NCBI GenBank assembly: GCA_048938385.1
Contig: JBHLMG010000018.1
Location: 1-45,975, forward strand
Reading direction: 5' to 3'
Length of the DNA: 45,975 bases
From: Promethearchaeota archaeon
GTDB taxonomy: Archaea; Asgardarchaeota; Hermodarchaeia; Hermodarchaeales; Hermodarchaeaceae
Within the stretch, counting starts at the first letter, position 1. Every line of letters starts with the position of its first letter. Under the pieces are notes generated by a model. It did not search any database and had not been told where the DNA came from. It saw nothing but the letters and a program-made list of their open reading frames with translations. Made by a program: the position numbers and the translations under genes. Positions 1 to 27,355 of this stretch are shown one piece after another.

Positions 1-608
1 CCGCGTTGGCGGAGGAGGCGGCGGAGGTATTCGGTGATGTCGCGGCCGGCGAGGTCGACGCGGCTGATGGCGTGGGTGAGGGCGAAGCCTTCGTAGATGG
101 GGACGATGTGGGTGACGCCGTCGCCGGAGTCGATGACGAGGCCGGTGGTCCGCCCTGACGCGTACAAGCTCAAGACGGCTTGCATGGCGACGTAGATGGC
201 GGGGATGTTGAAGGTTTCGAACATGATTTCCGCCATTTTCTCGCGGTTGGCGCGTGGGTTGAGGGGGGCCTCCGTCAAGAGGATAGGGTGTTCGGTGGGG
301 TCGACGCGGAGGTCGTTGTAGAAGGTGTAGTGCCAGATCTTTTCCATGGCGGGCCAGTCGGTGATTTGGCCGTGGGCGATGGGGTAGACGAGCTTTAGGA
401 CACCTCGGAGTTGGAGGGCCTCTTCGCCGATGTAGTACTCGCGGGTGTAGTGTTCGACATCGGTCATGTAGGCCGGGTACTTGGGGTAGCCGATGAGCGT
501 GGGGAACACGCTGCGTGGCTGGTCTTCACCGGCGTAGCCGTTTTTGCTTAAGCCGGTGCCGTTGTCAACCACCAAGGGTTTGGCGGTGACCATTTCTTCT
601 TCTGCCAT
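1..608 (-). CDS. Actin (Asgard/Lokiactin type), 3'-truncated by window edge
   Basis: Hand translation from ATG at 608: [44 protein letters not shown]...[135 protein letters not shown]. Contains classic actin motifs (DNGx[18 protein letters not shown]). Confidence 0.98.
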
Positions 609-701
609 AAGGTTAATTCAGCTCCTTCGAAGGGTGTTTTTTGTGAAAAGGGGAGGAGTCAGCTGGAAATCTATACCAGGCTGGTCTTCGTATTCCCATA
701 G

Positions 702-718
702 AAAATTCGGCGAATTTT
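702..718. promoter_or_regulatory. Perfect inverted repeat AAAATTCG-G-CGAATTTT, candidate operator
   Basis: 8-bp arms with a 1-nt spacer, 1 nt from the putative actin TATA box on its downstream side. Confidence 0.5.
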
Positions 719-719
719 G

Positions 720-728
720 TTTATAAAA
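720..728 (-). promoter_or_regulatory. Putative TATA box of actin gene
   Basis: TTTTATAAA on minus strand about 110 nt upstream of the actin ATG. Confidence 0.55.
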
Positions 729-862
729 CTTCAGGCGGGTTTTCGGGTCATCCCTATCAACGTTATGGTTCATAGCGATGTTGAATCAAATCGCAAAGCC
801 CTAATCTGGCTGGTGGGTGGGACGAGCCATTTATATGCGGGTCTTCGCTAGACTTTTTTGAT

Positions 863-1588
863 GTGTACCTGGTTCTGGGAGAGTTTGTCTGCCGAGTGAA
901 CCAAACATCGTGGTGGCACGGAGTGTCAGTGGGCAAAGTAAAACGAGTCATTGGCGGCGTTGAAGCACGCGAAATTATCCTCCACCAACTCCTCGACGGC
1001 CCACAGACGGGGATCGTGTTGCGCGCCGCGATTGGGCGACGCGTGTCGAAATCCGTGGATGAAGTCTCCGATGCCATGCTGTATTTTAACCTCCAGCACC
1101 TCGAAAACAACGGGCTCATTGAACGCTTCCGGGACGGCAAAGAGAAAGCCGCACGAATCGTTCCGGCGCAAATCCAAAGCGTCCGCCGCGTTTTAGGCGT
1201 CAAGGCCCCCATAGCCTATTTGGGCGCGATCGGTGAAGATCCGGGCGTGTTGCACGCGGTGCCTAAACGGATTCGGGCCGAAACCACCTATCGTCCCGAA
1301 AAATACCACTACTTCGTGGAGGAGGCGACGCAGCGTCGGCTCAGTGGTCTGACGGCGGAACGGGTGCTCCATGAAGTGCCCACCGACATCTTCTACCACG
1401 ATTTGGGGAGAATGTATGAACTCGTCTACCACCTGTCCCAAGAACTCATCCGGGAATATGCGATTCTCATCGATGTCACCGGGGGCGGAAAGGTCTGTGC
1501 CCTCGCCCTCTTTCAGCTTGCCATCGAATTTGATTTGCCTTGTATTTTCGTCAACGAACTGGGCAGCGTGACCTGGATGCGCCGCTAG
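863..1588 (+). CDS. Winged-helix + CARF-like domain protein, putative nucleotide-sensing transcription regulator
   Basis: N-terminal half resembles an ArsR/PadR-type wHTH (REIILHQLLDGP...LYFNLQHLENNGLIERFRDGKEK). C-terminal half is Rossmann-like with the CARF motif ILIDVTGGGKVCALAL..LA...PCIFV. TATA-like TTTATATG at 830-837. True start may be GTG at 929 (GGAG upstream). Confidence 0.75.
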   Translation: MYLVLGEFVCRVNQTSWWHGVSVGKVKRVIGGVEAREIILHQLLDGPQTGIVLRAAIGRRVSKSVDEVSDAMLYFNLQHLENNGLIERFRDGKEKAARIVPAQIQSVRRVLGVKAPIAYLGAIGEDPGVLHAVPKRIRAETTYRPEKYHYFVEEATQRRLSGLTAERVLHEVPTDIFYHDLGRMYELVYHLSQELIREYAILIDVTGGGKVCALALFQLAIEFDLPCIFVNELGSVTWMRR

Positions 1589-1630
1589 TTCCGTTCAACT
1601 CCTAGTGTGGTGAAGGATTTAGTACGGGTT

Positions 1631-3835
1631 TTAGGGTCCCGTATGGTTGTGATCTACCAGCGTGTAGGGAATATGGGTTTGTAAGGGTCCAATGAGCTGC
1701 TTTTGCCGCAAACTGAAAATGGCTTCAAACACCTCAAGGGACTCAGCGTCAGAGTCGCTGGTGTACCGGTCAAGGAGGTCTCGAATTAAAAAGGAGTCCT
1801 GTTCAGCGTTGAGCGCCTTTGCTAGGCTAAAGAGGCGCCGTTCCGCAGAGGTGAGGGACACCTCATCGCTTTTCTCGGTGCGAACAGCATGGGGTAGTCG
1901 GAAACTAATGAAGAAATATTTGTCCACCAGATCGATGGCTTCCCCGAAGATGTTCAGTCGCCCGGCCCAATTTTCGAGCACATCAGCGTATTCTTCTTCG
2001 AAGGCGAGGGTAAACTGTTCTAATCGTGCGTGGAGTTGGTCACTGGGTGGTTGTTTGAAAATGATGGCGTTGCGCATGTAGGTTCCATCGTGCACAACGA
2101 TGTGGAAGTCGCGGTATTTGATTTCACGTAGGGGCGTATCGTGATCTTCGATGGGAACATAGGAATCCTCGTTCTCGGTTTCGGTTAAGGAAATGCCGAA
2201 GGTCGTGATGGCTTGAATCAACGCCGTCACTAAGTTCGCGTTCATGGTGCGATCCATGATGGGATCCAGGAGGCAGAGCCCGGTTTCTTTATGGATGAGC
2301 AAAATCCGTTTGATTTTTTCAATGTCGGCGAACGAGTCGGCCAGCGTTTGGAGGAGGCGCCGGCGTGTTCGTTGTTTGGGAAGAAGAAATTGCTGACGGT
2401 AGAACACGAATAGTACGAGGAACACGGCGACGAGGATCACGACGACCCAGAGGATGAGCCCTCCATAGAGGGTGAACGGGGACATGGGCACGGTACAATA
2501 AATTGCCCAGAGACCATCTTCGGCATGATCGATAAACACCGTGGTCCCCATTATAGTCCAGTCCTCGTAGAGGAGGGTGTTTCGCGTGATGAAGCGTACG
2601 ATCCATTCGGGATCCAGCTCGATGAGAACAGTTTGATTTTTGACATTCTGCGGAAAATCGATGATGATTGTGACCGCCCAATTCACCTCTAAATGCCCGG
2701 AGGTAAAATCAAAACCTGCCAGGATGGAGGTACTTTCGATGAATGCACCAGTCCACTCAACATCGAACTCAACAGGCCACTGGTAGAATTCCAACCAATT
2801 CACCGTAACCTGAAAATTGCGACCTGCCCCGTTTAAGGCCAGGGGTGGTTGAAACGCGCCGCTATCCCACCATCCTTTTGAGGGCGTTAAAACATTGGTG
2901 ACTGCGATTCCGTTAACCTGCATGTTGATATCGGTAGGGAAGACTTCGAGGGACTCGGGAAGGATTGAGATATTGAGAAAAAGATCGCGGCGTCGGTAGA
3001 AAAAGGAGCTGTAGTAGTCGTAGCAGTCACCTTCGTCCTCTTCATCAGGATTGGCATCATCTCGACAATAGACCCAGTTTACTCGAGTATCGTCATCGTA
3101 GGCGCGGGCGAGGGCGAAATAGTAGGTGTTGAGAAACGTGGTCAGGGGATTGAGGATGAGGGTACTCTCGTTGGTATCGATCCACACCCAACGCTCCTGG
3201 CCTGGCGGAATGAGCGGCGAGATCGGCTCTTCTCTCCAGTCAGTGAGTACTGCAGAAGTATTAGGGATCGTAGCGGCACTAGTTCCGGGTTGTGCACCGT
3301 ACACACGATAGCGAAAAATGCCTTTAGATTCACCGCGAAGGTAGATCCAAAAGCCATCCACACGCACCGGGTCAGTGCCATTGATAGTGAAGCTCATAAA
3401 TGATGTTTCTGTCTCCCAGATTAGATTTTCAAATGCGCTGTTGCGTGGGTTATAATCTTCAACCACAAGTTGGATGGGTTCGGGTTCAATTCGGGTGAAA
3501 TTAAGCGTTTCCCGGCTCAGCATTCCTTGCAACGCCTCAGCAGAGAACGCCGTGTGGCTATTCCAAGATTGCCAGTGAACTTGCTGATTCCATCGTAACT
3601 GAGCCTGGAGGGTATTTTCAGTGCCTGGAAGCTGTAAATACCTCAACGGAATAGGAAAAGAGGTTCCAACACATGAATGCCTTGGTGAGTAGGAGTAAAC
3701 ATCATGTTGAGGGACATCGGATGGAACGCAGTGTGAAAAGGTGAGCAGATTAGCACAGGCCATTAGAATCAGGCTAAGAGTCAGACCTATCATATGAAGG
3801 CCCGACGAAGCCCGGGGTCCCTTCATACCTTCCAC
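1631..3835 (-). CDS. Single-pass membrane protein: signal peptide, large extracellular region, TM helix, cytoplasmic longin-like domain and C-terminal helix-turn-helix-like domain
   Basis: Hydrophobic N-terminus; TM segment GGLILWVVVILVAVFLVLFVFY followed by basic residues. Cytoplasmic ILLIHKETGLCL...LVTALIQAITTFG...LREIKYRDFHIVVHDG...PSDQL..RLEQF...FEEEY...LENWAG matches the pattern of Asgard longin-like domains. Confidence 0.75.
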   Translation of the reverse strand: MEGMKGPRASSGLHMIGLTLSLILMACANLLTFSHCVPSDVPQHDVYSYSPRHSCVGTSFPIPLRYLQLPGTENTLQAQLRWNQQVHWQSWNSHTAFSAEALQGMLSRETLNFTRIEPEPIQLVVEDYNPRNSAFENLIWETETSFMSFTINGTDPVRVDGFWIYLRGESKGIFRYRVYGAQPGTSAATIPNTSAVLTDWREEPISPLIPPGQERWVWIDTNESTLILNPLTTFLNTYYFALARAYDDDTRVNWVYCRDDANPDEEDEGDCYDYYSSFFYRRRDLFLNISILPESLEVFPTDINMQVNGIAVTNVLTPSKGWWDSGAFQPPLALNGAGRNFQVTVNWLEFYQWPVEFDVEWTGAFIESTSILAGFDFTSGHLEVNWAVTIIIDFPQNVKNQTVLIELDPEWIVRFITRNTLLYEDWTIMGTTVFIDHAEDGLWAIYCTVPMSPFTLYGGLILWVVVILVAVFLVLFVFYRQQFLLPKQRTRRRLLQTLADSFADIEKIKRILLIHKETGLCLLDPIMDRTMNANLVTALIQAITTFGISLTETENEDSYVPIEDHDTPLREIKYRDFHIVVHDGTYMRNAIIFKQPPSDQLHARLEQFTLAFEEEYADVLENWAGRLNIFGEAIDLVDKYFFISFRLPHAVRTEKSDEVSLTSAERRLFSLAKALNAEQDSFLIRDLLDRYTSDSDAESLEVFEAIFSLRQKQLIGPLQTHIPYTLVDHNHTGP

Positions 3836-4058
3836 TACTTCCCTTTTTCAGATGCACCACGAACACAATGATACACTTATCACATTGGTTGGTGCGGCAA
3901 CTCTGGAAATCTGTAGCATTTGAGAACCGCCCTCAACACGATAAATACTTTTGTTCACAACGATTGGGGAAGAGAAACGGTTGGAGTTTTCGAAATTTTG
4001 GTTTGAAACGCAACCGACAAAAACCTGAAATTTTTGCTGAAAAACTGAATGGATTGCA

Positions 4059-4775
4059 CTAGTCGCTGTGAGGAGCGAATGGAACAAACGCGGCGTCGCG
4101 AAGGATTGGGGTCAAACTGAATCGGTTTGGTTGGGCGCAAAAGTAGATGTCGTCTTCATAACCTGCCTGGACGAGGATGCTACCATGCCGACTGACGAGG
4201 AGTTCACGGGCAATGTCTCCCGTATCGGCGTAGCTGCGGGGATCGTTGGGTCGTTCAATCCGGCTGATGATATGGTAGGAGGTAAAGTCATCCTCTAAGG
4301 CAGGACCATGCATGCTTCCCGCGGATATTACCGAAATTTGTCGTTGCGATTGGTGAGAGAGGGTGCGGGCTGTCGCGGCGACATGTTCGATGTTTAAGAA
4401 CGCCCCCACGAGGATAGTAGCGGTCTTTGGGGGTTTGCCTAAGGTACGAGTGAAATTACTCGTCGTTAAGATGATGGGACGCCCATGGATTCGCTGGGTG
4501 AAAAAGCTTCGGGGGGAATTTCCGTAATCAAACCCTGCCGGGGCATGGGCGGCTCGTTCGCCTGCGAGAAACCCATCAGGATAGTAATAAATTAGGTCAC
4601 GGGCTTCCTCAACAGTGGGAACGGGGATGATTTTCGATGCGCCGTTGGCGAGAGCAGTGATAATTGTACTACTGGCACGTAAGACATCGACGAGGATCAC
4701 GATGTGGTTGGCGGTCACAGCGTTGGCGAGCGCGTCGGGTCCGACCCCATGGTTCACTGTACGCAGAGACGACAT
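4059..4775 (-). CDS. comB: 2-phosphosulfolactate phosphatase (ComB) family protein
   Basis: VDVLRASSTI, LAGER, FDYGNSP, ILTTSNFT, GAFLN, LEDD motifs. Confidence 0.88.
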   Translation of the reverse strand: MSSLRTVNHGVGPDALANAVTANHIVILVDVLRASSTIITALANGASKIIPVPTVEEARDLIYYYPDGFLAGERAAHAPAGFDYGNSPRSFFTQRIHGRPIILTTSNFTRTLGKPPKTATILVGAFLNIEHVAATARTLSHQSQRQISVISAGSMHGPALEDDFTSYHIISRIERPNDPRSYADTGDIARELLVSRHGSILVQAGYEDDIYFCAQPNRFSLTPILRDAAFVPFAPHSD

Positions 4776-10010: not shown

Positions 10011-10852
10011 TGGCGCACCTCCTTTACAAGTGCTTTCACGGCAGCTTCAACGGAGAGCGGAACGGTGCCACGAAGATGTGGTTGCGGCATTTGCTGAAAG
10101 AGCTGGATTATTGGAGGAACCGCAACGCCAACCTGAGACACGATAGGATCCTGAATCACTTGTGCTGGTGAACCCGTTGCAACCAAGCGTCCTTGACTCA
10201 ACACGAAGAGTTCTTGGATATGAGGAAGGACGAGTTCTAAGCGGTGTTCGATGAGCAAGATTGTCAGGCGCATCGTCTTATTAAGCGTGGCAAGCAGCTG
10301 TAGGGTTTCATACGCAGAAAGGGGATCGAGGTTCGCAGTGGGTTCATCTAGCACTAAAATATCTGGTTCCAGTGCTAATACAGCTGCAATCGCCACTCGT
10401 TGTTGTTCACCCCCTGAAAGCTCATAGGGCGCCTTATCACGGAGAAGTTCAAGGTGAAGATGGTGAATAAGGGTTTCAATCCGATCACGGATTTGCTCTC
10501 GAGGTACGCCGAGGTTTTCTGGGCCAAAGGCTAGTTCCCGTTCGACCGTAGGAGCCACGAGTTGGTTCTCAGGATTTTGAAAAACCAGACCCACCTTTTC
10601 GGCGAGTTCATGGGCAGGATGTTCTTGAGTATTCAATCCTTGAACTTGCACTTGGCCTTCGAGTTCACCAGGATGAAAGTGAGGAATCAACCCATTTAGA
10701 CAGCGAGCAAGGGTCGTTTTCCCACATCCGCTTGGACCCACTAGTCCAACGAAGGCGCCTTGAGGAATCGCGAGTGTGATGTCGTCTAATACCTTCTTTT
10801 TAGAGCCCGCATAGCGAAAAGACAGCTTGGAGATTTCAACACTCACACTCAA
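10007..10852 (-). CDS. ecfA1: ECF transporter ATPase
   Basis: GPSGCGKTT, FQNPENQL, LSGGEQQR, LDEPTANLD. Confidence 0.93.
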   Translation of the reverse strand: MSVSVEISKLSFRYAGSKKKVLDDITLAIPQGAFVGLVGPSGCGKTTLARCLNGLIPHFHPGELEGQVQVQGLNTQEHPAHELAEKVGLVFQNPENQLVAPTVERELAFGPENLGVPREQIRDRIETLIHHLHLELLRDKAPYELSGGEQQRVAIAAVLALEPDILVLDEPTANLDPLSAYETLQLLATLNKTMRLTILLIEHRLELVLPHIQELFVLSQGRLVATGSPAQVIQDPIVSQVGVAVPPIIQLFQQMPQPHLRGTVPLSVEAAVKALVKEVRQ

Positions 10853-11892
10853 TCACCCACGGGTTGGGAACCACCGGGTTGCTTGGATGTGTTGTGATGA
10901 GCCTTTAGAGCTTTTCGTAGTAATTGAAGGGCAAGTCCAAGGGCATGATCACCGGAAGCAGGTCCGTTCGCTCCTGCGGCTGAAGGGTGTCCACCGCCTG
11001 CGCCACCAATTAATTCCCCTAAGGGTTCCATGACATCCTTAGCTAGATCAAGGCCGCAATTGCGGACGACAGCCATCGTCGCCCGCGCACTAAGACGCAC
11101 CTCGTCTTTCTTTGCGGCGCAAGCAATCGCAATGTCGGCACCAGCGCTGATGAGGGAACGACACACACTAGCTTCGTAGGATCGAATCGTAGTAACCACA
11201 ATCAGGAGGTCGTTTTCATCATAAACAACAGCGCGTTTAGCAGCTTTCAACCGCGCCACCCGTTCGGATTTATCGAGGGGTGTGAATAACAGGGAGAGGA
11301 CCTGCTCGTACTCGGCGCCATAATTTAGCAGAGTGTTAAAATGCTCAAAGGTACTGTTCACGGCTATGTGGAAATGGCGCGAATCATAGACTAGCCCTGT
11401 GGCAAGTAGTGTCGCTGCAGCTGGGGTGGGCGCCTGGTCACTGGCTTCCCATAACTGTAAAACCAATTCGGCCGTTGATCGAATTTGCTCATCGTACAGT
11501 AGGTAATCAGCAAGCTTAGGCAGGTCCTTATGCGGAATATGATGGTCGATACAAAAAGAAATGGTTTGGTCGCGTGGTAGATGGTTTATAAGCTCCCCAA
11601 ACTGCTCCTCATTATTCAAATCCACCAACACAATCACCGAATGTTCGCTTAGGGTGTCTGGTGGAGCAATTGTGAGGTTGAACGCGTTGAGTACATTGGT
11701 GGCGCTTCGATTGAGGCCTTCTGCATAGATATGGGATTCGATGCCTCCCTGGCGCTCGAGTAGAATGGCAAGCGCTGCTGCGCTGCCCAGAGCGTCAGGA
11801 TCTGCACTCTGGTGCAACACTAAGGCAACAGGAGTCTTTGTTGCCTTAGCTAAAAGAGTAGAAAGGAATTGAGAGGGATTTAGCTGTTTCAA
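10849..11892 (-). CDS. DHH/DHHA1 phosphoesterase (NrnA-like)
   Basis: HQSADPDALGS, VD, IDHH, YDS, GGGHPSAAG; usual position downstream of prefoldin beta. Confidence 0.92.
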   Translation of the reverse strand: MKQLNPSQFLSTLLAKATKTPVALVLHQSADPDALGSAAALAILLERQGGIESHIYAEGLNRSATNVLNAFNLTIAPPDTLSEHSVIVLVDLNNEEQFGELINHLPRDQTISFCIDHHIPHKDLPKLADYLLYDEQIRSTAELVLQLWEASDQAPTPAAATLLATGLVYDSRHFHIAVNSTFEHFNTLLNYGAEYEQVLSLLFTPLDKSERVARLKAAKRAVVYDENDLLIVVTTIRSYEASVCRSLISAGADIAIACAAKKDEVRLSARATMAVVRNCGLDLAKDVMEPLGELIGGAGGGHPSAAGANGPASGDHALGLALQLLRKALKAHHNTSKQPGGSQPVGD

Positions 11893-25858: not shown

Positions 25859-27355
25859 CTATTTAATTGTTTCCTCATTCGCATTCTCGTCATCAGGAAG
25901 TTCTACCTTTTTCATTCGTCCCAGTTGCTTACGAAGAACTCGCTCCACGATTTCGAGGAAGCGTTGTTCTTGGCCTCGCGGAATTGTAGCCCCGGCTGCT
26001 ATGTTATGACCGCCACCTTCAGAACCGCTCCCAATTTCTGCTGCGGCTTGTTTCATGGCTTCTCCTAGATCGGCACCCGCCTCCACAATCAGCTGGGTTG
26101 TTCGCGCAGAAACCTTTACTCGCCCATCACGAGAATAGACAAAGGCTATTACAGGTTTAGACCAATCTAGCATACGGGCGTTAAGCGCCATGCCTGCAAT
26201 GTTACCAACTATTGTATCGGGAACTCGATCTTGGGCATGAAAAGTTTGGAGGAATTTTCGAGCGGTAACAGCATCCTTATCTTCAATGAGCCATTGTAAA
26301 CCTAAGGCGAGTTGTTCCCGATATTCTTTCAAAATGCTCTCTGCTTTTCGGTAAAGATCACCACGGTCGCCCATACACACCGCTACACCAATACCACCTT
26401 GGTTGGTGCGCCCTGTAGCATTGAGAAGTGTGGAAAACATACGAGCGTCACGGAGGTAGCTCCCTTTCTCCTCTTGAGTCAGAGTGAATACAACACCGAT
26501 AAGCGCCTGGGCTTCACGGGGAGGAATGTTCTTTTGGAGCATATAGGTGATGAGAGACGAGTTCATTTGACGCTTCTCTTCCTTGGACAGGGATGCAATA
26601 GTCCGCCATTTATCCCCATCGCGTAATTCAATGCCAAGTTCGGCAAGGAAATTCAATGCGCCCTCCGGATCATTACTAATGCCAGGAATGTACGGGTCAC
26701 TGGTATATTGCAGAGCTACATGAATTGGGCGAGTTTCACGACCGAAGATCCGTATGTCGATGGATCGTTCAAGCACTCCCGCAGCCTGAGCGTCTTCGAC
26801 GATGATGTTCTTGTTCAGCCCCACGAGATCGTGCTGCTTTCCCCGGTCTTGCATATCTCCAAGGGCTCCGACTACAGCTAATGCCGCTAAATCGTCATTA
26901 GAGCCACCCAGGTGACGTGCAATGAGATACGCGGCACCTGCGCCTGAAATCTCGTAGGTGGCATCAAATCCGCATTCATTAGGATTGAATTGGTAGATGT
27001 TAGATGGGAGAGGAGCATCATCTAGTGGATGGTGGTCTAGAATGACCGTTTCTGCGTCTTTTAACGATTCTTTGATGAGGGGGATTTGGCCACTACCAAG
27101 ATCGCAGAAAATTTGGTACCCAGAACCATGGGTGGCTAACTCTGTGAGATAGAGCTGATCGAGTTGGCGGGTTATTCGTAAATGAAAGGCTGCGTTTCGT
27201 CGAGCTAATGCTGACCCCATAATTCCTGCAGCTGAAAGACCGTCAGCATCCAAGTGTGAAGTAACGAAAATTGTTTCGTTTGCTTCAATCCAGTCATTGA
27301 TACGACCAGCTGTTCTGTCAGCAAGTTCGAGAAGCCGATCTAAGTTCTTTGTCAA
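25859..27355 (-). CDS. RecJ/Cdc45-like DHH nuclease (GAN type)
   Basis: SHLDADGLSA, CDLGSG, LDHH, GDMQ, GGGHNIAAG; conserved uS15-RecJ-eS1 context. Confidence 0.92.
   Translation of the reverse strand: MTKNLDRLLELADRTAGRINDWIEANETIFVTSHLDADGLSAAGIMGSALARRNAAFHLRITRQLDQLYLTELATHGSGYQIFCDLGSGQIPLIKESLKDAETVILDHHPLDDAPLPSNIYQFNPNECGFDATYEISGAGAAYLIARHLGGSNDDLAALAVVGALGDMQDRGKQHDLVGLNKNIIVEDAQAAGVLERSIDIRIFGRETRPIHVALQYTSDPYIPGISNDPEGALNFLAELGIELRDGDKWRTIASLSKEEKRQMNSSLITYMLQKNIPPREAQALIGVVFTLTQEEKGSYLRDARMFSTLLNATGRTNQGGIGVAVCMGDRGDLYRKAESILKEYREQLALGLQWLIEDKDAVTARKFLQTFHAQDRVPDTIVGNIAGMALNARMLDWSKPVIAFVYSRDGRVKVSARTTQLIVEAGADLGEAMKQAAAEIGSGSEGGGHNIAAGATIPRGQEQRFLEIVERVLRKQLGRMKKVELPDDENANEETIK

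Follow-up and report, generated by a model that had tools for sequence, protein, structure and literature searches.

Csa3 of the Sulfolobales (Csa3a/Csa3b) is a transcription factor that joins a CARF domain and a winged helix in a single polypeptide; it is CRISPR-associated, binds cyclic tetra-adenylate (cA4) and recognises palindromic promoter boxes. In Can2, Card1 and VC1899 the CARF domain is fused to nucleases, forming effectors that are activated by cA4. Outside CRISPR immunity, the bacterial sigma-54 activator RtcR, composed of CARF, AAA+ and helix-turn-helix domains, controls the rtcBA RNA-repair operon, that is, housekeeping or stress genes, and responds to an RNA-derived signal other than a cyclic oligoadenylate (cOA). 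A further minor family, CARF_m5, is already catalogued in PADLOC (PDLC01987), with a profile that comes from a defence-system library. Here we describe a CARF_m5 protein (the regulator, hereafter) that is encoded divergently from a eukaryote-like actin gene in an Asgard archaeon and is paired with actin across most of the Asgard families sampled, and we propose that it is, on balance, probably a dedicated, dimeric and possibly ligand-controlled transcription factor of actin derived from CRISPR-linked sensors. The DNA analysed, referred to as the window, runs from base 1 to base 45,975 of contig C15 (G000:C15:1-45975) in a 2.48 Mb metagenome-assembled genome (MAG) that is 89.8% complete. Literature searches returned no paper linking CARF_m5 to actin and none on the actin/regulator pair, as had been supposed when the locus was first singled out from its sequence, nor any described regulator or promoter element for an Asgard eukaryote-like actin.

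The regulator and its relation to known CARF proteins

The regulator gene (923-1588, + strand) encodes 221 amino acids (aa) and runs divergently from actin. All orthologues start at the GTG at position 923 (VSVGKVKR...), and the DNA 5' of this codon shows no coding conservation; the spacer between the two genes therefore measures 314 bp (609-922) and not the 254 bp deduced earlier from a start at 863. A structural model obtained with AlphaFold2 from the single sequence was unusable, with a predicted local distance difference test (pLDDT) score of 33.5, and was replaced by one built on an alignment of 63 sequences, which had been gathered by exhaustive profile search and from six-frame matches in Asgard genomes. 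The alignment-based model reached a pLDDT of 94.6 and a predicted template modelling score of 0.88. In it, residues 1-94 (923-1204, +) adopt a winged helix-turn-helix (wHTH) fold of the ArsR/SmtB/PadR type, superposing on CzrA, SmtB, HlyU, BigR and a PadR protein with Z scores of 10-12, and the recognition helix SDAMLYFNLQHLE maps to positions ~1067-1105 (+). The remaining residues, 95-221, encoded together with the stop codon at 1205-1588 (+), form a CARF domain whose best structural superposition was on Can2 (8bao; Z 15.6, root-mean-square deviation [rmsd] 1.8 Å over 116 aa), followed by VC1899 (Z 14.8), a second Can2 structure (7bdv, 14.1), Card1 (14.0) and Cdn1 (13.9), with Csm6, Cad1 and Csx1 also matched. 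Overall, these matches spanned Z 12-15.6 and rmsd 1.8-2.7 Å, in agreement with Foldseek (probability 1.00).

Among sequence profiles, Pfam PadR scored 18.8-19.1 bits on the regulator, below its cut-off of 27, HTH_20 and HTH_5 matched distant members only, and CARF_Card1 matched 14 of the 63 family members. The PADLOC CARF_m5 profile, for its part, matched the window protein almost end to end (1.1e-41, 141 bits; residues 9-218 on profile positions 9-194 of 195) and every one of the 63 aligned relatives. As modelled, then, the regulator is a wHTH-CARF protein of the CARF_m5 family, which bears out the domain assignment of the original prediction.

Following strand 4 of the CARF domain, the loop D184-V-T-G-G-G-K190 (1472-1492, +) was aligned by PDB profile search with the NVTGGTK of Can2; it is kept across the class and lies close to the canonical DxTGGTK of the CRISPR-linked members. 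Conservation is as high in the CARF half as in the wHTH half, and D184, G187, A193-L196 and D204 are invariant. The protein was also predicted to form a homodimer, with an interaction prediction score from aligned errors (ipSAE) of 0.50, as compared to 0.00 for the best control, contacts that agreed by at least 96% between runs and a partner pLDDT of at least 87; among proteins solved as same-chain pairs 20 of 30 reach this ipSAE mark, versus 1 of 23 among those solved as single chains. The predicted interface is symmetric and consists of residues 159-162 and 185-219, including the helix after the TGGGK loop, so placed that the two K190 residues come within 4.4 Å of each other across the two-fold axis. 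Such a prediction is a likeness rather than proof, and may reflect recall of solved CARF dimers, which are well represented among structures.

The regulator resembles CARF_m5 as catalogued in its full-length profile match, in the wHTH-then-CARF order and in its similar length (~210-270 aa), whereas the genomic context differs: members of the family with the TGGTK loop lie by type III CRISPR or defence genes, and the Asgard branch lies by actin in CRISPR-less genomes. Csa3 is alike in uniting CARF and winged helix in one polypeptide (Csa3 CARF, 6wxq: Z 11.2, rmsd 2.6 Å, 115 aa), but carries its CARF domain N-terminally and its wHTH C-terminally, the reverse of the arrangement found here, and PADLOC Csa3 profiles matched only 8-10 of the 63 family members, weakly. 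Moreover, Csa3 acts with CRISPR systems, while in our genome no Cas1, Cas10 or RAMP genes were found and the presumed target is cytoskeletal. Can2, Card1 and VC1899 offer the best structural matches (Z 14-15.6) and have the V-T-G-G-T/G-K loop in common with the regulator, in which, unlike in those nucleases, the CARF domain is joined to a DNA-binding wHTH. The likeness to RtcR is by description only.

The actin/regulator pair across Asgard archaea

A word-based search had recovered 18 close relatives and suggested a clade-restricted family, a notion that was discarded once six-frame and exhaustive profile searches revealed a phylum-wide one. The family profile matched 126 of 400 Asgard genomes. 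DNA around the matches was sampled from 14 GTDB families (designated below by f-numbers), actin was placed by tblastn, and the 67 loci with a flank of sufficient length were assessed. Actin was the immediate upstream neighbour of the regulator in 58 of these 67 loci and in 11 of the 14 families, the two genes being divergent in 56 cases and co-directional in 2. The pair was present in all 13 contigs of the window's class and divergent in every sampled locus of f26 (2), f5 (3), f14 (6), f27 (4), f4 (1), f3 (3), f2 (1), f30 (1) and f31 (22, from ~16 genera); both co-directional pairs belonged to f15, with the regulator upstream of actin.

Whether this adjacency could be due to chance had been left undecided by the original prediction, which rested on one genome. 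To control for inherited gene order, the genes flanking actin on its other side were clustered for 26 loci; they fell into 22 unrelated singletons, even inside f31. The downstream neighbour of the regulator varied too, being ComB, a membrane protein, an RNase III-domain gene (f31) or a Ras-family GTPase (f17, f2). The pair, together with the promoter elements described below, is thus real and far beyond chance. Across families, the identity of the regulator to the window protein drops to ~25%, and that of actin holds at 73-87%. Within the genus, identities were 93-96% for actin, 84-88% for the regulator, 71-76% for ComB and 52-59% for the membrane protein, so that at this locus only actin is more constrained than the regulator. 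The surroundings consist of housekeeping genes (exosome RNase PH, aIF2-gamma, aIF5B, an Obg-like GTPase and a RecJ/GAN-like DHH protein); because of this setting, and since no CRISPR or synthase genes were found, the Asgard branch of the regulator behaves as a core gene, single-copy and vertically inherited, and not as a defence gene.

The actin gene itself opens the window (3-608, - strand) and is truncated by the contig end, so that its N-terminal half alone (202 codons) is present in the assembly and the 3' remainder is missing. That an actin gene lies here, as first proposed, was confirmed by Pfam Actin (2.3e-71, 241 bits over 202 aa) and by PDB sequences, among which an archaeal 'HC1 actin' (1.5e-104) was the closest solved relative, ahead of eukaryotic actins (~1e-85), with only weak matches to MamK and BeeR. 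By these comparisons it is an actin of the eukaryote-like, Lokiactin type, nearer to eukaryotic or Asgard actins than to MreB or crenactin. The fragment is 96% identical to the full-length orthologue in locus L003, and the only other actin-family matches in the genome were two tandem paralogues (C47:1130-3266) with 27-31% identity to it. Besides the window, seven related contigs start or end inside actin, at codons ~32 to 354 (loci L001, L007, L009, L011, L012, L013 and L015); probably, nearly identical actin DNA from populations that occur together confounds the assembly, leaving actin often half-missing from these MAGs. One related MAG carried two copies of the entire actin/regulator/membrane-protein locus, L011 (G012:C24) and L019 (G012:C30), which could be due to strain heterogeneity, contamination or a real duplication.

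Several observations on neighbouring genes were made along the way. In f31 (L053:3747-4436(+), L075:2001-2675(-) and others), a 225-234-aa RNase III-domain protein (PF00636, 1.7e-13) follows the regulator, overlapping it or a few bases off, and is itself adjoined by an HD-domain gene. A Ras-family small GTPase (PF00071, 1e-54 to 1e-57) lies beside the regulator in f17 and f2 (L058:3685-4188(-), L059:3672-4187(-), L047:3753-4310(+)). Family f20 (12 genera) possesses actin, and no relative of the regulator was found near it, even at an E value of 10; three of its 12 actin loci adjoin a related-looking protein of ~180-210 aa (L107:452-1078(+), L114:3115-3651(+), L116:474-1019(-)) for which no Pfam or PADLOC match was obtained and which could be an analogous regulator. 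In the window, two DHH/DHHA1 phosphoesterases are encoded at 10849-11892(-) and 25859-27355(-), the second with a DHH-CID domain (RecJ/GAN-like); DHH enzymes are able to degrade nanoRNA and cyclic dinucleotides.

Elements of the divergent promoter region

Alignment of the 13 orthologous spacers of the class provided a footprint of the promoter region. The two TATA-like boxes and the inverted repeats noticed originally were confirmed. Both TATA boxes are kept in all 13 spacers: that of actin, TTTTATAAA in the actin sense, at 720-728 (-), ~116 nucleotides (nt) upstream of the ATG, and that of the regulator, ATTTATATG, at 829-837 (+), ~90 nt upstream of the GTG. Upstream of both lies a candidate operator (753-798) comprising the 11-mer TATCAACGTTA (755-765), a partner GTTGA (780-784) and a conserved flank, within which TCAAC...GTTGA forms a conserved pair at 757-784. 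Between the TATA box and the predicted start site of actin, as would suit a repressor, there is a perfect inverted repeat (8+8), AAAATTCG-g-CGAATTTT (702-718); its right arm and TTCGAA core alone are conserved in relatives. The footprint also included a conserved block, GCTGGAA..CCAGGCTGGTC..GTATTCCCA (660-698), surrounding the transcription start predicted for actin and the early part of its leader, and this locus was the only genome match of the position weight matrix (PWM) derived from the block. Further into the actin leader, the palindrome CCTTCGAAGG (624-633) overlaps the GGAG ribosome-binding site; it is conserved in the spacers of genus g1 and has three copies in the genome. An RNA element in the actin leader was considered and set aside, as structure prediction for the leader gave no signal (z +0.59) and Rfam no match in positions 1-4200.

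The 11-mer TATCAACGTTA was found at each of the class's 13 actin loci and was not enriched elsewhere, with 29 matches versus 22 for the reversed control in 19 genomes, and a regulon search with this sequence and with PWMs of the three conserved blocks revealed no enrichment beyond the actin locus. Consequently, if the box is an operator, the regulator would be a local and dedicated one. The sole extra copy in the genome, CCTATCAACGTTA (C40:3251-3266), is flanked by a TATA-like box on one side and by the start of a 374-aa AbrB-like gene (C40:2099-3223, -) on the other; it is not conserved in relatives and is probably due to chance.

In other families, a YGATATCR-centred palindrome of the TATAGATGATATCGTCTATA type occurs just upstream of the actin TATA box in all 15 loci of f26, f5, f14 and f27, against an expectation of at most 0.16 per family, and the TATCAACGTTA box of the class is the positional counterpart of this TAGATGATA/GATATC palindrome. 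The half-site TAGWYGAYA was present upstream of actin, 103-151 nt from the ATG, in 4 of 4 loci of f13 and f17, families whose regulator gene is located away from actin; upstream of the relocated regulator gene no GATATC was found, and no box was seen there by eye. In f20, with actin and no detectable regulator, 1 of 11 actin loci had the half-site. Read in the actin sense, the class box is ACGTTGATA, 147-155 nt from the ATG, and since it differs from the TAGTTGATA of one f13 genome in the first two positions, we read it as a local version of the same element. Other boxes were seen in f31, f3, f2 and f15, and a GATATC variant outside the strict pattern in f4. No k-mer was common to the spacers of all families, boxes existing per family group only. 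The wing of the wHTH differs along with the box, reading DGKEKAARI here, with ACGTTGATA, and EWKxKYAEI elsewhere, with TAGATGATA/GATATC; as a single event this coincidence proves nothing, but it goes in the direction that would be expected. In f31 a further wing, ESxxRIY, goes with a TCGA-type box.

Proposed control of actin and alternative explanations

We propose that the 221-aa protein would act as a homodimer, its N-terminal winged helix contacting DNA and its C-terminal CARF domain providing both dimer interface and sensor pocket. The homodimer would bind one or more of the conserved boxes in the 314-bp divergent promoter region and, once bound, control transcription of the adjacent actin gene and probably of its own. 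As to its origin, distant CARF_m5 members with a canonical TGGTK loop are encoded directly upstream of RAMP and Cas10 genes (P0053), and others beside Cas6/Cas4 (P0056) or in a PLD/kinase-helicase island (P0072); the Asgard branch is likely a defence-type sensor regulator that was recruited to control actin, a housekeeping cytoskeletal gene, before the Asgard classes separated. A more far-reaching version, which we advance only tentatively, is that actin is in addition set by an intracellular nucleotide- or RNA-derived small molecule made by no known cOA synthase. A eukaryote-like cytoskeleton would in that case receive a second-messenger input independent of CRISPR, through a recognisable operator co-evolving with the wing of the regulator.

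For the nucleotide messenger envisaged in the original prediction, no source came to light: no Cas10 palm, SMODS/CD-NTase, DAC or class III cyclase, and likewise no RAMP, Cas1 or second CARF_Card1 protein, was found in the 89.8%-complete genome, an absence which at that completeness is probable, not proven. A Cas10 palm was also found in none of the 19 genomes of the class. Any ligand, if one exists, is therefore not the product of a known cOA synthase and, in this class, not a Cas10-made cyclic oligoadenylate.

Apart from this missing ligand source, several findings weigh against control of actin by a ligand-sensing regulator. Adjacency failed in f13 (0/5), f16 (0/2) and f17 (0/2): a distance of 3.3 kb separates the two genes in one f17 genome, and in f13, f16 and one f17 genome the regulator is unlinked. 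The regulator is scarce in large actin-bearing families, with 3 weak matches in 135 genomes of f20, 1 in 31 of f7 and 1 in 22 of f10, so it is not generally needed for actin expression. The CARF loop of f31 reads DLSxGPP, its Lys/Arg having been replaced, and ligand sensing may accordingly not be family-wide. The cores of the boxes differ by lineage, AACGTT here and GATATC or TCGA-type elsewhere, which makes the homology of the sites positional only, and the conserved boxes, taken here as the putative operator, could be bound by another factor. Finally, the neighbouring ComB-family gene, for a 2-phosphosulfolactate phosphatase (4059-4775, -; Pfam 2-ph_phosp, 1.4e-47), keeps company with the regulator in six families, adjoining it convergently in f1, f14, f13, f16 and f3 and lying one gene away in f2, and does so in f13 and f16 even where actin is gone. 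The ComB-bearing organisms considered here are, to our knowledge, not known to make coenzyme M.

Among the alternatives, the one that survives best, rather unlikely as we judge it, retains the control of actin but supposes that the CARF domain no longer senses anything and serves as a dimerisation scaffold, the protein being a constitutive or concentration-dependent (auto)regulator with no second messenger. The lack of Cas10, SMODS, DAC, class III cyclase and RAMP genes would agree with it, as would the degeneracy of the loop motif across Asgard families, including the loss of the basic residue in f31, and the fact that the predicted dimer interface is the CARF domain itself. Nevertheless, the DVTGGGK loop of the class is nearly canonical, the CARF half with its invariant residues is no less conserved than the DNA-binding half, and a plain dimerisation domain would have no need of a Thr-Gly-Gly-x-Lys loop facing the two-fold axis.

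We regard as improbable that actin is not the target at all, the regulator only autoregulating or working with another neighbour such as ComB, and its adjacency to actin being a gene order inherited unbroken. Many divergent regulators are primarily autoregulators, and the persistence of ComB beside the regulator in f13 and f16 fits such a role. However, ComB is missing in f26, f5, f27, f4, f15, f17 and f31, and, where present, it is convergent and so has no promoter in common with the regulator. Moreover, the other flanks have been scrambled while the actin pair persists, and in f13 and f17 the conserved box stays with actin and not with the regulator gene. A role in antiviral defence, in which the protein would respond to cyclic oligoadenylates during infection as its CRISPR-linked relatives do, could draw on the defence neighbourhoods of distant CARF_m5 members and on structural neighbours that are all cOA-binding proteins, but is very hard to reconcile with a genome in which no type III CRISPR, Cas1 or CD-NTase genes were found, a class with no Cas10, the housekeeping surroundings and the single-copy, vertically conserved behaviour of the gene across Asgard families.

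The original prediction had gone further and linked actin and the regulator with the next gene into a three-part signalling module, in which a longin-bearing receptor would sense an outside signal, a nucleotide messenger would be made and the CARF regulator would set actin expression. This third gene (1631-3835, -), convergent with the regulator, encodes a type I membrane protein of 734 aa that has a signal-like segment (~12-34), an ectodomain of ~420 aa with six N-x-S/T sites, one strong transmembrane segment (~458-479) and, C-terminal of it, a KQRTRRR cluster followed by 255 cytoplasmic residues. The convergent orientation, the single membrane pass and the receptor-like topology thus stood; the longin-like domain found no support, since no Pfam match was obtained for 12 homologues and no PDB sequence match for the protein, the Robl_LC7 profile matched 14 other places in the genome and not this one, and hhalign against those Roadblock domains gave a probability of 0.45%. 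Its neighbours in the ESM Atlas, V4R (TM-score 0.52) and HTH_47-bearing clusters, are loose pointers. In the window, as in most relatives of genus g1, the three genes lie side by side; yet the membrane protein occurs at the locus in only part of that genus, is absent from it in L002, L003, L012, L016 and L017 of the same class, where the regulator converges on ComB, and in all other families, evolves fast in comparison with the regulator, and neither it nor the genome revealed a cyclase or synthase domain. The module, to which we give almost no credence, is largely refuted by this distribution, and we treat the membrane protein as a lineage-specific insertion that is not part of the conserved pair. 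Of the 14 Roadblock/LC7 matches in the genome, four lie within 2.4 kb on contig C23 (C23:129850-132174).

The regulator is hence, in our view, the strongest candidate for a switch dedicated to the expression of actin, one to which the 734-aa membrane protein does not belong. It offers a small soluble protein, a promoter fragment of ~300 bp with candidate operators and a putative sensor pocket open to ligand screening. Should the link between regulator and actin fail, few non-operonic gene pairs in Asgard genomes would be as persistent as this one, which would still call for an explanation. Should it hold, it would show clearly how CARF, a sensor domain of the defence type, is reused in core cell biology, and would open a route to the physiological signal by which the closest archaeal relatives of eukaryotes switch the production of their cytoskeleton.

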